NCBI GenBank assembly: GCA_964589775.1
Contig: CAZPUN010000024.1
Location: 1 to 22,750, forward strand
DNA length: 22,750 nt
Direction of reading: 5' to 3'
Source: an uncultured archaeon
Lineage (GTDB): Archaea; Asgardarchaeota; Thorarchaeia; Thorarchaeales; CAZPUN01
Part shown: piece by piece, positions 3,326 through 9,731 of the stretch
Position numbering within the stretch: position 1 is the first letter of the stretch
Layout of the letters: every line of letters starts with the position of its first letter
Made by a program: the position numbers and the translations under genes
The notes under the pieces: model-generated
What the model was told of the DNA's origin: nothing
Database searches by the model: none
Seen by the model: only the letters and a program-made list of their open reading frames with translations

Positions 3326-3805
3326 TTGTCCATAATTTTTAAAATTGTAATTACTGGTCCCGGATTAAAAACAAGAATTGAAGATTTGAAAGCATATGCG
3401 AATTCCGAGTCATATTTGAATATTATTGCAACAGAAGTATTATACAAAAGGACAAAGGAAGATCAGATATTAATATGGTTATTAAAGGAAAGTAGTTCAG
3501 CCATAAAAGCATATTATAGGAATGCATTAGTTGTCGTGTATTTGGGCGAAAAAAGTTCTAAGAATAAAGATCATCTAAAAAACATAATATTTCCAGCTGT
3601 AAATGATAACGATGTTCCCTTCCTTTACATAATAAATGGTGAGGATATAAAAAACGATAAAGAACTATTTGATGGATTAAATGATAATACAAAAGTGACA
3701 TTTATGAATAATGCTGAATTTTGTTTTGTAGATACTATAATTTCCGAAGTTAAATCGGAGTATACTAATTCATTGAATCGCGAAAACGTAGCGATAATAA
3801 AATAA
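3326..3805 (+). CDS. Degenerate Ras/Rab-like small GTPase-fold protein (probable pseudo-GTPase)
   Basis: Collinear Rab-like elements FKIVITG, IATEV, QILIW, KAYYRNALVVVY and NDVPFLYIING, but no canonical GxxxxGK[ST], DxxG or NKxD. TTG start. Confidence 0.6.
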   Translation: MSIIFKIVITGPGLKTRIEDLKAYANSESYLNIIATEVLYKRTKEDQILIWLLKESSSAIKAYYRNALVVVYLGEKSSKNKDHLKNIIFPAVNDNDVPFLYIINGEDIKNDKELFDGLNDNTKVTFMNNAEFCFVDTIISEVKSEYTNSLNRENVAIIK

Positions 3806-3818
3806 AAAATAAGAGCGG

Positions 3819-6800
3819 TTATGCTCTCTTTCTTCTCACAAGCCCTTGAATTTTTGTTAAGAATTTAGCGAGTTTGCTTGATATATACGGAATGACTACA
3901 AGGAACAATACTGGCAATAATACAATCACTCCGATTGAGTAACTTCTTAGGAAGTCCATGGTTGAGACTGTGGTTCCGCCTAAGATCACGAGAAACATGA
4001 AGAATTTAATGCGTATTGAAGAGGATATTCGTCCAAGATAATTTATTCGCTCGTCGATTATGACTGCTTCTGGAGTACCCATGAGAACCATTTTATCGAG
4101 TCGCTTTATGACTTTAGAAATTTCTCTGTACACGTTGAAAACTACAAGTACAATCGATGAAATGTATGTGGCAAATATTGTAAGCATAATGCTTGGTATT
4201 TGTATTTCACCCAATGCGAATGTCTGGCTTAATACATAGACCTGGAACCATTCGATGTGGTTTCCCCATTCGAATATCTGCCATACAACGAGTGGCACAA
4301 ACACTAGATGCCATATTCCTAAAATCATACGGCGTTTACTGATTCTGTTATTTACTAGAATTGAACTATTAGCATCTCTGTACAACCATATTCCATACAA
4401 GAGTAATGAAGCTCCTAGCAGTAAGACACTTTCTACTACTGCCAGGGAATAATTCTGTGCCGCAGCCGTGACAAATGAATGAAGTAGCACGATAGCCGAA
4501 ACGCTCAAGATAAATCCATAGAGAATATCGAGCTTTTTGATTCCTTTCTTCAATGTTTCAATTGTTTTGCCTTCAACAGAGAAGGATCTTGTGAGCTTGA
4601 AGTAAATAATCATGCCTATGAATGAAATCATAAAGGAAATGCCAGTACCTAATGTAAATGTCTGTGTCGACATAGTAATTTTGGGTGGTGGTACTTGAAC
4701 TTGAATGGTCTTTTGGGTGGATGCCGAAATATACAAGTTTCCAGATGCATAGACCTTTATTTCATACTCGCCGTGAGGTATTTGTGTAATGGGGACTGAT
4801 GCAATATAAACTCCAGTATCTTTTTCAACTGCTGTATAGTTTTGATTGTTGAAAGATACTGTAATATTTGCACCTTGTACTGGATGTCCAAATATATCTG
4901 AAGCTCTAACAGTTACATTAAGAATGCTGCCTTGTTCAGGAGTATCTGTAGATAACGATATGTCAAATTGAAAGACACCTATGACTTTTATTTGCCCGAC
5001 TAGTTCCGTGTTTGTTAGAAATCTTTGTTCAATTTTTATTGTGTATGTATAATCCCCTGAAGCCCAGCCAGATGTTGATACACTAGTTCTGTAAGTGCCA
5101 TTGCCAATAGAATTTAGCAGATAGACATTATCATGAATGTATAATTTAAGTGATGCAGAAGAAATTAGATGACCAAGACTATCTGTCAAGTTAATTTCAA
5201 ATTGAACTATATCCCCTTGTGTAATACTTTGATTTAGAACTGGCGAAATAATTAATGCCACAGGAGTACTCATTACTTTTACCATGACGCTTGTATTTAT
5301 GTCATTGAAATATGAGCCGTTAATATAAATGTGCATAGGAATTGTTCCCGGTGGTGCATCTATATAGAATGAAACATTTAGTTCGTAATCATCTACTACT
5401 GTTCCCGAGATATTGTAATTTATGAAACTTATTGAATAATTGAAATTATAAATCGGATTTCCATATATATCTCGCAATACGATAGTAAATGTTGAGTTTT
5501 TACCATTTTGAATCTCAGAGGGCATTTCTACCTTTACAACCGCATTTCCATAGATGATTATGTTCTTTTGCAATCTCGTCGGAATTAAATTATCGTGAGT
5601 AATTGAGATTATCAATGTGTAATTTCCTGGAGCATAGCCTACAGCTGAAAAATCGACAACGTATGTGCCGTTTCCAAGATCTGCAAAGATATAACTTGCG
5701 GGGCTCAAGGTTGATATTGTCGCACCTGATACTGATTTATTTGTCCAATCTTGTAATTGTATTCTTAGAGTTGTTATATTATTTTGACTTATCTGCCAAC
5801 CCAGTGAAGATTCAAGAACTGCATTTGGTATTGAATAAATGTCTATTGTTTCATTTAAGATCTTTGTGTGCCCAAATTCAGAGCCTACGTAAATTAAGAA
5901 GTATCTCGTTCCTATTGAATAGTTTGCAGGTACATTTGCAATGAATTGTGTTGTAGAAACGTTAGTAGCCGTATAATTAACACCATTTATGTTTATGATA
6001 ACCCACGGATTATCAAGCGGGGTATCATAAAAATCACTTACGTAAATTGATACATTGAAATTAGTTCCGCCCTCTGCCTTCTCAGGATATTGAATACTTG
6101 TACTGATATCGCCTGTAATTGACAAATAGAAGTTTCCAAAGGTGGTTGGATTTACAAAGTCATGTTCAACATGTATCTCACAAGTGTGATTTCCTAGAGG
6201 TATATCTGCAGACATACTTAATTGGTAATATCCGGGTGCAATTTTATTAAAATAGTAGTCATTTCCATCAATCGTTATGTAGACCGTTGCATTGTCTATG
6301 AAGTGTCCATAAGGATCAGTAATATTTAATGTTATTTGGAACTGCTCGAATTGTTCTACGCTATTTGGTGATGTTCGATTTATGTTTAGGCTGGTTGCAA
6401 ACACATCAAAATAGTCTGAATAATTAACTTGTTTTATTGCATAATTGTGATCTGCAAAAATTGTAAATGAATGCTCTCCAGGATTTAGAGTTATGTTTGG
6501 TGTAATAATATCATATGTATGCCCGGTGAATACTGCATAATAAATTGTTCCTTCAAGGTTCAATGATACGTTTGCGTTAGTAACCTGTTTTCCTAAATTA
6601 TCCGTAATAGTTACATTAGCCTGGAAGGCATCACCTTGCTTCACGCTTTCTGAAGCGAATACTGTCAGGTATAGATTACTTCGAACAGTAATTGCGTCTT
6701 CGATGAATCTATAGTAATCTGTATAATATGTATCTTCTACATTAATTGTTAGATTGACTTTACCCATTGGCCAGTTGGACGCAATTGCTCCTTCGTACAA

Positions 6801-9731
6801 TCCGGATGTCGCATTATATACTAATCCATACGTTTGAGTTCCGCCTTCATAATGTGCCGTAATTGTAACTCTTGCAGTTGTTACATCTTCAATATATACA
6901 TTCATTACATCTGCTGAAATCGATATCGGATTTCCTTGTTCTACATCTGTCTCGGATATATTTATTGTTACGTTTAATAGATATAATGAATCAATGTCTC
7001 GAACCATACCGCAAGTATATTTCAAATTACCTACAATTGGATACGCGAAGAAATCTACTCCCCTAGATATATCTGCGTGTCCTATGATTACGCCATCATA
7101 AATGTTTGCAACTTTATATTTGTATTCCATATATCCGGAGAAATTAAGCATGTGGACATTGCTATCTGAAGATGAGAAAACGATCTCAGATATATTATCT
7201 CCATCAAAATCAAAAATGTCTACAAATTGTAATTCTCCTGTGTATGCTGTAATACTCCAATTCTCTATCAGGTAATTTTTCATAGTCATGAGTGTTACAT
7301 TTCGAACTGTGTCAAATACTATTATTTCATCAATGCCGTCATTATTTGTATCATATGTTAGTACACGTTTTGCATATCCTCCGTATTTTATTCCATATTC
7401 CTCTCCTATATACGTGGATTCTGAATCTATCCAGCATAGATATGTACGATATCCATTGTTGTATCCACTATAATATGCCAATAGATCTTCTGTTGCCTTT
7501 GAGGAATTATGAAATACAGTTAATCCGAGCGCAGTATCGCCTTCAGTTAGTTCTGGAGATGAATAATTGTATGCTTTTGCTAATGTTAAATTATCAAAAT
7601 ACACCTGAATCGTATTATTTAATCGTAGTGCTGCTATTTGGCGGTCGGAACCAAATAGATTTACATCCTGAAGATCAACGACATAATTTGTTGAATTTAC
7701 TATGTTTACACTTGTATATGTAAAATCATGATTAACTCTAACAAGCAAATAATTATCTAAAATATCTTCGCCCACAATATAAATTTCATCATAACCATCA
7801 TTGTTAGTGTCTGCTATCGCAACGGGAAAGTTGTCTATGTATGTAGTATCAATCGGAATTGACAAATTATTGATCGATGTGGCATTATTACCATGAAACG
7901 CAAACAATATAACGCGATCTGGGAGTCTATCGAAAATAACGAAATCTTGCATATCATCTCCGTCAAGCCATGCTGAATATAATGCGACTCTTAGGTCTGT
8001 GGAATTTACTACATCCTTATTATATAGAACGCTTCCAGCATTGTTAAAGATCATAAAACCAACTGTATTATTTACGGATATATCCTTAGCAAATAGAGTT
8101 ATTGGTATTCTCTCATTTGATGTTTTGTTGATTAATCGGTCTACAATGTGTCTGCGTGTAATATCTGTTTCAGTAGGTGTATTATAGGTCCATGAAAAGT
8201 GTCCTGAAACGCTAAAATGCAAAGGCGATGTCGAATTTCCATATGTTTGTATGTTTAAGTACGCATCTTTAACTTCATAATAAAAATCATAATCTGCAGG
8301 TTCTAATCCCGTAAGAAATAGAATAAAGCCATCATTTGAACCAAATGTCATGTCGTATTTTTCGAAACTAGATGCCGAACTTTCTTTTATGTATAATACA
8401 GCTGATGATATGCGTGAGTTATCTGTACTTGTAATTTCAAATTTCACATATAGGTCATTAATTGTAGGATGCTCTGGATATATTGGTTTTGGATCAATAT
8501 TCGGTCTTTCAGTATCGCTTATTACAATTCTAATATCGCTTTGATCGTTTAATGTAATGATATCTTCTCTGCCATCATTATTCATATCGTATGTTGAAAT
8601 TTGAACAAACGGACCTACATCTTGAGGCTCTTCATACCCTAAATCTCCATTTTCACCACGATAGAATGCTGCCTGTATGTTCGGGCTTTGAATTGCAACG
8701 TCTGTCTTGTCATCTGCATCAATTAATGCCATACTAAATGACTTTTGACCATTGGCTAATATTGCTTCTTTTGATGAATTAAATAAATAAAATCCATTTG
8801 TTCCGTTAAAGAATAAAATGGGCCCTACGTTTTCAGGAATTATTATAAAATCCGTTTGATTATCCTCTGTAAAATTCCCAATTCCTATCAGATTTATGCT
8901 TCCAACTCCTTGAAATGATTGCGAATATATTAAACTCAAATCAGTACCATTATATAATTCAATTTTATTCTGAGCTGTAATTATAATATCATAATATGGA
9001 TCTGGTCCATATCTTATTTTCGATATGTCATATGGCGTATAGGTATTCACTTTACTATATAGAATTACGCCTGACTCATTTACTACATTTATGGATGCTG
9101 TATTCGTATATATTGCAATTTCATCACCAGTGTCTGTAGGATTAAAATCTGCTGCAACGCATCGTACTATCGTACCTGTAATAAGCGTATTCTCTCCCAA
9201 AGTAGCATTGTTGTGTACATCAATTATCTGTATGTAGGTGTCATTATATACTGCGATGTCTTCAAAGCCATCACCGTTAAAATCTCCTGATATGATCTCT
9301 TTTGCGTTATCTGTAATTAATGAAACTCTGGACGGAGTTGCAACATCAAAGTCTATTATTGTAACATTAAGCGTCGGTGTTGTTGTTACTAATAGAAATT
9401 CTGTCCGGCTATCGTTATCTATATCTATGCCTGTTAATGTATTCTCTATAAAATCTCCACCTATATTCATAGACGTAATAAACCCAGTGATCAAATCTCT
9501 AAAGTACAACCTGCCATCAACAATATACGCAAAGCCTCTATAAGCTCCAACTAATCCCGTTTCAAATCTATTAATTTTTTCGGGAACATGATAAAAATAA
9601 ATATCTGTCGCAGGTTGTTGGTCTTTTGAATATATATTGTTATGTTCAATTCCATTTGAAATCATTGTACTATTATTTGAACTTACATATATTAATAATA
9701 TTATAAGGCAGATTAGTAATACTTTTTTCAC
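3819..9731 (-). CDS. Giant cell-surface glycoprotein: signal peptide, two FG-GAP/VCBS beta-propeller regions, eight Ig-like repeats, C-terminal 7-TM domain
   Basis: 1970-aa ORF with GTG start and GGGGA SD upstream. N-terminus MKKVLLICLIILLIYVS; many D-x-[DN]-x-D-G-x-x-[DE] motifs; many N-x-S/T sequons; seven hydrophobic helices in the last ~285 aa. Confidence 0.88.
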   Translation of the reverse strand: MKKVLLICLIILLIYVSSNNSTMISNGIEHNNIYSKDQQPATDIYFYHVPEKINRFETGLVGAYRGFAYIVDGRLYFRDLITGFITSMNIGGDFIENTLTGIDIDNDSRTEFLLVTTTPTLNVTIIDFDVATPSRVSLITDNAKEIISGDFNGDGFEDIAVYNDTYIQIIDVHNNATLGENTLITGTIVRCVAADFNPTDTGDEIAIYTNTASINVVNESGVILYSKVNTYTPYDISKIRYGPDPYYDIIITAQNKIELYNGTDLSLIYSQSFQGVGSINLIGIGNFTEDNQTDFIIIPENVGPILFFNGTNGFYLFNSSKEAILANGQKSFSMALIDADDKTDVAIQSPNIQAAFYRGENGDLGYEEPQDVGPFVQISTYDMNNDGREDIITLNDQSDIRIVISDTERPNIDPKPIYPEHPTINDLYVKFEITSTDNSRISSAVLYIKESSASSFEKYDMTFGSNDGFILFLTGLEPADYDFYYEVKDAYLNIQTYGNSTSPLHFSVSGHFSWTYNTPTETDITRRHIVDRLINKTSNERIPITLFAKDISVNNTVGFMIFNNAGSVLYNKDVVNSTDLRVALYSAWLDGDDMQDFVIFDRLPDRVILFAFHGNNATSINNLSIPIDTTYIDNFPVAIADTNNDGYDEIYIVGEDILDNYLLVRVNHDFTYTSVNIVNSTNYVVDLQDVNLFGSDRQIAALRLNNTIQVYFDNLTLAKAYNYSSPELTEGDTALGLTVFHNSSKATEDLLAYYSGYNNGYRTYLCWIDSESTYIGEEYGIKYGGYAKRVLTYDTNNDGIDEIIVFDTVRNVTLMTMKNYLIENWSITAYTGELQFVDIFDFDGDNISEIVFSSSDSNVHMLNFSGYMEYKYKVANIYDGVIIGHADISRGVDFFAYPIVGNLKYTCGMVRDIDSLYLLNVTINISETDVEQGNPISISADVMNVYIEDVTTARVTITAHYEGGTQTYGLVYNATSGLYEGAIASNWPMGKVNLTINVEDTYYTDYYRFIEDAITVRSNLYLTVFASESVKQGDAFQANVTITDNLGKQVTNANVSLNLEGTIYYAVFTGHTYDIITPNITLNPGEHSFTIFADHNYAIKQVNYSDYFDVFATSLNINRTSPNSVEQFEQFQITLNITDPYGHFIDNATVYITIDGNDYYFNKIAPGYYQLSMSADIPLGNHTCEIHVEHDFVNPTTFGNFYLSITGDISTSIQYPEKAEGGTNFNVSIYVSDFYDTPLDNPWVIININGVNYTATNVSTTQFIANVPANYSIGTRYFLIYVGSEFGHTKILNETIDIYSIPNAVLESSLGWQISQNNITTLRIQLQDWTNKSVSGATISTLSPASYIFADLGNGTYVVDFSAVGYAPGNYTLIISITHDNLIPTRLQKNIIIYGNAVVKVEMPSEIQNGKNSTFTIVLRDIYGNPIYNFNYSISFINYNISGTVVDDYELNVSFYIDAPPGTIPMHIYINGSYFNDINTSVMVKVMSTPVALIISPVLNQSITQGDIVQFEINLTDSLGHLISSASLKLYIHDNVYLLNSIGNGTYRTSVSTSGWASGDYTYTIKIEQRFLTNTELVGQIKVIGVFQFDISLSTDTPEQGSILNVTVRASDIFGHPVQGANITVSFNNQNYTAVEKDTGVYIASVPITQIPHGEYEIKVYASGNLYISASTQKTIQVQVPPPKITMSTQTFTLGTGISFMISFIGMIIYFKLTRSFSVEGKTIETLKKGIKKLDILYGFILSVSAIVLLHSFVTAAAQNYSLAVVESVLLLGASLLLYGIWLYRDANSSILVNNRISKRRMILGIWHLVFVPLVVWQIFEWGNHIEWFQVYVLSQTFALGEIQIPSIMLTIFATYISSIVLVVFNVYREISKVIKRLDKMVLMGTPEAVIIDERINYLGRISSSIRIKFFMFLVILGGTTVSTMDFLRSYSIGVIVLLPVLFLVVIPYISSKLAKFLTKIQGLVRRKRA
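4690..6985 (-). repeat. Eight tandem ~95-aa Ig-like stalk repeats
   Basis: Repeat openings VEQGNP, VKQGDA, VEQFEQ, AEGGTN, ISQNNI, IQNGKN, ITQGDI, PEQGSI, mostly followed by D-x-x-G-x-x-[IV]-x-x-A-x-[VI] and later G-x-Y motifs. Confidence 0.7.
7050..8190 (-). repeat. Second, more degenerate FG-GAP-like propeller
   Basis: WLDGDDMQD, DTNNDGYDE, NLFGSDRQ, HNSSKATED, DTNNDGIDE, DFDGDNISE, HADISRGVD. Boundaries approximate. Confidence 0.65.
8550..9440 (-). repeat. First FG-GAP-like propeller: seven Ca-binding-type blade motifs
   Basis: DIDNDSRTE, DFNGDGFED, DFNPTDTGDE, RYGPDPYYD, NFTEDNQTD, LIDADDKTD, DMNNDGRED at roughly 45-50 aa spacing. Boundaries approximate. Confidence 0.75.

Follow-up and report, generated by a model that had tools for sequence, protein, structure and literature searches.

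Adhesion G protein-coupled receptors (GPCRs; class B2, for example latrophilins and GPR56) carry a very large, adhesive and glycosylated ectodomain on seven membrane helices, with the N-terminus outside, the C-terminus inside and a long third inner loop. Integrin alpha subunits have a propeller head of FG-GAP repeats with DxDxDGxxD-type calcium loops, set on immunoglobulin (Ig)-like legs. Eight-bladed FG-GAP/VCBS propellers are found in the biofilm matrix adhesins Bap1 and RbmC of Vibrio cholerae, and bacterial 7TMR-DISM receptors combine an extracellular binding domain and a conserved seven-helix module with interchangeable cytoplasmic parts. Here, we characterize a gene of an Asgard archaeon whose product resembles each of these systems in part. 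It lies on contig CAZPUN010000024.1 of assembly GCA_964589775.1 (Thorarchaeales CAZPUN01), of which positions 1-22,750 of the forward strand form the window analysed. Judged from its sequence, the gene product is a giant cell-surface protein with predicted N-glycosylation, and its seven-helix membrane module belongs to no known family and shows no evident kinship with GPCRs.

The differences from the described systems are pronounced. Unlike adhesion GPCRs, the Asgard protein has no sequence similarity and no convincing fold similarity to 7tm_2, no GAIN/GPS domain and no G-alpha match in its genome, and only about 7 hinge residues separate its stalk from the first transmembrane helix (TM1). Where integrin alpha has one seven-bladed propeller and one membrane helix, there are two apparently eight-bladed propellers and seven helices here, and the tail lacks GFFKR. 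Bap1 and RbmC are secreted, bacterial and devoid of a membrane domain or such an Ig stalk. In contrast to 7TMR-DISM proteins, the Asgard family has no 7TMR-DISM Pfam match and a far larger ectodomain, and the protein lacks any enzymatic output such as a kinase or cyclase. It also differs from microbial rhodopsins in that there is no Bac_rhodopsin match and TM7 (1931-1951) contains no lysine, none being conserved in the family. The module family was undescribed in the papers searched, none of which contained both 'Asgard' and 'FG-GAP'. Asgard 'integrin repeat-containing ESPs' receive a bare mention in one paper, where they are credited to Liu et al. 2021.

Architecture and membrane topology

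All residue numbers given here refer to the 1970-amino acid (aa) protein counted from a GTG codon at position 9731. The public gene call (P0002, 1948 aa) begins 22 residues downstream of this codon and thereby loses the hydrophobic N-terminus, or signal sequence, which is present only if the GTG is used. We take this codon as the start because an 85% identical orthologue, P0003, opens with the same MKK followed by a hydrophobic segment. A GGGG stretch precedes the GTG. From the N-terminus, the protein consists of a signal sequence, a first propeller, an Ig-like domain, a second propeller, eight Ig-like repeats, a proline hinge and seven membrane helices. Apart from the Ig-like domain between the propellers, this is the layout given in a preliminary description of the locus, and the intact open reading frame (ORF), Pfam matches, a self-derived hidden Markov model (HMM), hydropathy and structure models agree on it.

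For the ectodomain head, two Pfam families exceed their thresholds, FG-GAP_3 with 43.8 bits (against 26.9) and FG-GAP with 28.6 bits (against 22.1), and six strict calcium-loop-type motifs (DxDxDxxxD/E-type) are located at residues 103, 150, 382, 641, 794 and 841. An AlphaFold model of residues 23-930, built on an alignment of 47 homologues, reached a predicted local distance difference test score (pLDDT) of 89 and a predicted template modelling score (pTM) of 0.70. It contains two propellers of 32 and 31 strands with an Ig-like sandwich in between, and this spacer carries the invariant motifs P..HPT..D and YY..V.D.YLN. Based on the model, both propellers are apparently eight-bladed (Bap1/BamB-like) and not of the seven-bladed integrin-alpha kind, because re-alignment of Foldseek matches by VIA-align superposes each of them on eight-bladed propellers, designed eight-blade proteins among them. 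The earlier wording 'integrin-type' is therefore apt at the level of FG-GAP repeats with calcium-type loops but not for the number of blades, which appears to be eight versus seven.

The stalk was resolved by the self-derived HMM into exactly eight repeats that recur roughly every 95 aa (residues 930-1684), and the Ig-like Pfam families Big_1, CarboxypepD_reg and Big_7 match it below threshold only. Its last repeat reaches residues 1667-1684 or so, leaving only a PPP hinge (1681-1683) between repeat and TM1; the third of these prolines is kept in at least 90% of 97 closer homologues. The ectodomain contains 58 N-x-S/T sequons, which argues for its location outside the cell, and one further sequon is found in outer loop 1.

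For the membrane part, sequence and model together predict that the N-terminus is outside, that seven helices cross the membrane and that the C-terminus is inside. Seven hydropathy peaks coincide in number with seven model helices and, with the N-terminus set outside, the inner loops and tail carry 26 lysine and arginine residues compared with 2 on the outer loops, in good agreement with the basic inner loops proposed before. Outer loops 1 and 3 comprise 7 and 4 aa, respectively, and inner loop 3 comprises 41 aa, so that the two very short outer loops and the long third inner loop of the earlier proposal are likewise borne out. Double zinc ribbons that come after TM7 in relatives (see below) provide independent support for a cytoplasmic C-terminus. 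An AlphaFold model of residues 1675-1970, based on 150 family sequences, reached a pLDDT of 82 (above 90 across TM2-TM6) and a pTM of 0.76. It shows seven long helices, an outer loop 2 formed by a short helix and a beta-hairpin, and TM3, TM5, TM6 and TM7 running on as helices beneath the membrane. The basic tail had been likened to helix 8, but in the model it prolongs TM7 in a straight line (pLDDT about 65-70), and no other segment of the module is less conserved. A predicted two-copy complex of the module scored 0.17 (mark 0.42).

Conservation, kinship and distribution of the membrane module

In a comparison with ten full-length homologues, no part of the protein was better conserved than the seven helices, whose degree of conservation is about double that of the ectodomain. 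Module identity was 85% to P0003 and 44-58% to the nine more distant homologues, for which the ectodomain segments showed 20-37%. Conservation is highest in TM3-TM7, inner loops 2 and 3 and outer loop 2, and lowest in TM1, inner loop 1 and the tail. The module motifs are LYGxWLYRDA at the end of TM3, GLWHLxxVP in TM4, G..I.WF..YV...G...IP in outer loop 2, Y.SS and NxYRE in TM5, M...GTP..V...E and SSIRxKF from inner loop 3 into TM6, and IPxxxS at the end of TM7. LYGxWLYRDA, GLWHLxxVP, NxYRE, GTPxxV..E, SSIRxKF and IPxxxS are all present in this protein, which matches the family alignment with 370 bits, and are kept in the 97 closer homologues. An internal duplication of helix hairpins, considered in view of YRD and YRE at the ends of TM3 and TM5, was rejected after hhalign returned probabilities of 1-2%.

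Searches for kinship with described membrane families were negative at the sequence level and gave no convincing match at the structural level. The module (residues 1680-1970) has no Pfam or NCBIfam match, and Pfam analysis of 150 family members yielded neither a 7tm nor a 7TMR-DISM family. Matches to DUF2207_C (10 of the 150 members; the positions disagreed among the three examined) and HlyIII (3 of 150) were read as noise from transmembrane composition. A profile search against all sequences of the PDB gave nothing significant and returned only designed channels and the beta-1 adrenergic receptor (13.7 bits, E 0.2, over TM5). Kinship with GPCRs, rhodopsins or PAQR receptors was thus rejected at the sequence level, and no transporter or channel family was matched consistently. 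Although the model is good, the structure search did not connect it to a GPCR or any other known fold: the best Foldseek match in the PDB had an E-value of 0.15, GPCR entries had template modelling (TM) scores of about 0.2, superposition on GPCRs by VIA-align left a root-mean-square deviation of 15-16 Å, and a shape search of the ESM Atlas reached a TM-score of at most 0.37. All of these structural matches are in the noise range for helical bundles, which also weighs against the earlier concern that the module might be a known transporter or permease. By Pfam, no GAIN/GPS domain precedes TM1. GPCR machinery was not detected in the genome (2.16 Mb, 96.75% complete) either, with no match to G-alpha (PF00503), and none to 7tm_2 or GPS in searches whose controls also remained without a match. 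The reserve of the preliminary description, that only the topology and not homology links the module to GPCRs, was well placed.

When 1.84 billion representatives were searched exhaustively with phmmer, only 122 clusters were returned at E < 1e-3, in which the module is nearly always C-terminal in proteins of 1,300-2,500 residues. All named members are from Asgard archaea (Thor-, Sif-, Odin-, Loki-, Sigyn- or Promethearchaeota), in line with the origin suspected from the sequence. A match is present in 103 of 400 genomes across the phylum and, within the sister family belonging to the same order, in 58 of 86, with 1-4 matches per genome. Among sequencing runs, the DNA was listed for one hydrothermal-vent metagenome, possibly its source, and for no RNA data set. 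A second paralogue in the same genome (1,620 aa; contig 52, L008:4253-9115, (+) strand) has an FG-GAP ectodomain, Ig-like repeats and the same module motifs; its gene is flanked by genes for an Acyl_transf_3 membrane acyltransferase and a beta-helix/NosD-type protein. No stand-alone or differently fused short forms of the module were found among the short matches, which are only fragments, as every one of them starts inside an Ig repeat or the module or comes from a contig no longer than about 11 kb.

The HMM search with the seven-helix part revealed a conserved module in combination with a differing ectodomain and differing tails. One distant member, P0127, has a BNR_2 sialidase-type propeller ectodomain instead of FG-GAP. 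In the distant subfamily to which it belongs (P0112-P0143, Sigyn- and Promethearchaeota), a double zinc ribbon directly follows TM7 in all ten members tested. Many Thorarchaeota members carry an acidic tail of 90-110 residues after TM7 (for example P0008:2361-2458 and P0009:2420-2529) with the repeated motif LTK..I..LP / EL.KLTK.QL and a conserved end, LTK.EII..LP.ELKE.MG.EEL.KLTK.QLE.LLP; no Pfam family matches these acidic tails. The protein studied here has neither acidic tail nor zinc ribbon and ends with 19 basic-tail residues after TM7. That the same base bears a zinc ribbon in some lineages and an acidic helical tail in others is what one would expect of a modular receptor for adhesion or contact that works from the outside inward.

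Possible functions of the module

We propose that the protein is an adhesin-like surface protein in which the module would be more than an anchor and would couple the stalk to a putative intracellular partner, a reading to which we give an even chance. The two calcium-type FG-GAP propellers would serve as binding head, and the Ig-like spacer together with the eight Ig-like repeats would build up a stalk measuring tens of nanometres. Through a short proline hinge, this stalk is linked directly to TM1 of the Asgard-specific module, which may act as a coupling base that grips the stalk via TM1 and the conserved hairpin of the outer loop; with this hairpin and so short a hinge containing proline, a fairly rigid connection would be possible. 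On the inside, the extensions of TM3, TM5, TM6 and TM7 with WLYRDA, NxYRE, GTPxxV..E and SSIRxKF would present a conserved helical surface on which a cytoplasmic partner could dock. This conserved inner face represents a defined bait for partner searches.

Several observations weigh against such coupling. This protein lacks an output domain, its tail being 19 poorly conserved residues, and no conserved gene neighbour exists beyond the locus of the 85% identical orthologue, the neighbours at loci L004 to L007 being unrelated. A 159-aa ORF that lies tail-to-tail with the gene has no GTPase, Pfam or PDB sequence match. Further, the helices could be so highly conserved because they pack or assemble laterally, and not because they signal.

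The alternative that survives best is a structural protein of an Asgard glycoprotein coat, in which the seven helices, perhaps packing laterally, would only root it very firmly in the membrane and no information would pass inward. We consider this possible but rather unlikely. A single helix suffices as an anchor, and the twofold difference in conservation between membrane and exposed part lends weight to the earlier argument that seven conserved helices exceed what anchoring needs. The strongly conserved motifs of inner loops 2 and 3 and the cytoplasmic domains added after TM7 in other lineages also speak against a mere root, even though the giant Ig stalk, the 58 sequons of the ectodomain, the count of just 1-4 matches per genome and the lack of both output domain and conserved neighbour would all suit a coat.

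A channel or transporter, in which the module would move an ion or small molecule and be gated or positioned by the ectodomain, seems improbable to us given that the sequence searches matched no such family consistently and the structural matches all fell within helical-bundle noise. That the module is a true distant GPCR relative, a forerunner that the archaeal ancestors of eukaryotes possessed before adhesion GPCRs evolved, is hardly credible, since the gross likeness (large ectodomain, seven helices, long inner loop 3, charged motif where TM3 ends on the inner side) and the non-significant beta-1 adrenergic receptor match stand against the absence of any 7tm family, the poor superposition on GPCRs, and the lack of a GAIN/GPS domain and of a genomic G-alpha match. 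A large ectodomain on seven helices can therefore arise unrelated to GPCRs, and caution is warranted when topology is read as homology.

Returning to the coupling of stalk and intracellular partner, a more far-reaching version would make the module an Asgard-specific transducer that passes contact or mechanical signals from the adhesive ectodomain to the cytoskeleton, small GTPases or membrane-remodelling machinery, and that is unrelated to GPCRs and integrins. In this specific form we regard it as unlikely. If true, the archaea most closely related to eukaryotes would have invented the adhesion-receptor principle independently. Cell-surface contacts and protrusions are the presumed means by which Asgard archaea encountered their bacterial partners. 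The family is restricted to Asgard archaea in everything searched, is built like an adhesion receptor and shows stronger conservation in its membrane base than in the exposed part, which makes it a candidate link between the cell exterior and a eukaryote-like interior.

Feature coordinates and genomic neighbourhood

Table 1. Features of the giant surface protein gene and its tail-to-tail neighbour, with positions in the window.
Feature	Residues	Position	Strand	Basis or remarks
Whole gene	1-1970	3819..9731	(-)	single open frame, 1970 codons + stop, GTG start at 9731
N-terminal signal/anchor segment	1-22	9666..9731	(-)	hydropathy peak at residues 4-22; kept in orthologue P0003
FG-GAP beta-propeller 1, apparently eight-bladed	~41-405	8517..9611	(-)	
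Ig-like beta-sandwich spacer between propellers	~411-508	8208..8501	(-)	all-beta, model residues 389-495
FG-GAP beta-propeller 2, apparently eight-bladed	~509-912	6996..8207	(-)	
Eight Ig-like repeats of ~95 aa, PPP hinge at end	930-1684	4680..6944	(-)	self-HMM, 8 copies
Seven-helix membrane module and 19-residue basic tail	1685-1970	3822..4679	(-)	hydropathy, model, conservation
TM1	1691-1711	4599..4661	(-)	hydropathy and model
TM2	1735-1754	4470..4529	(-)	hydropathy and model
TM3, conserved LYGxWLYRDA at end	1762-1783	4383..4448	(-)	hydropathy, model, conservation
TM4, conserved GLWHLxxVP	1801-1821	4269..4331	(-)	hydropathy, model, conservation
Outer loop 2, short helix and beta-hairpin	1822-1845	4197..4268	(-)	model, conservation; G1823, W1828, P1846 near-invariant
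TM5, conserved Y.SS and N.YRE	1846-1866	4134..4196	(-)	hydropathy, model, conservation
Inner loop 3, 41 aa, helical extensions of TM5/TM6	1867-1907	4011..4133	(-)	model, conservation; M...GTP..V...E and SSIR.KF conserved
TM6	1908-1926	3954..4010	(-)	hydropathy, conservation; K1909 near-invariant, F1913 invariant
TM7	1931-1951	3879..3941	(-)	hydropathy, conservation; P1940 invariant
Basic cytoplasmic tail, poorly conserved	1952-1970	3822..3878	(-)	7 K+R, 0 acidic residues; lowest conservation of all segments
159-aa ORF, tail-to-tail with the giant gene		3326-3805	(+)	counterpart L003:13943-14431

The locus of the 85% identical orthologue (L003) retains the whole neighbourhood, including the tail-to-tail ORF (159 and 162 aa, 52% identity). 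For this ORF, sequence searches gave no support for a Rab-like protein. A receptor-transducer pair formed with the giant protein was rejected as well, since the small ORF is kept only beside this orthologue, is missing at four other family loci and matches no GTPase or other family.

In two loci (L003:17653-18189 and L007:18790-19320), genes for small GTPases of the Arf/Ras family are found at a distance of 4-5 kb from the giant gene, at differing positions and orientations. Asgard genomes contain many Arf/Ras-type GTPase genes, and we therefore read nothing into this nearness, which is probably due to chance. At L004, a 744-aa protein that belongs to no Pfam family and does not appear at the other loci is encoded directly after P0004 on the same strand (L004:14201-16435, (+) strand).
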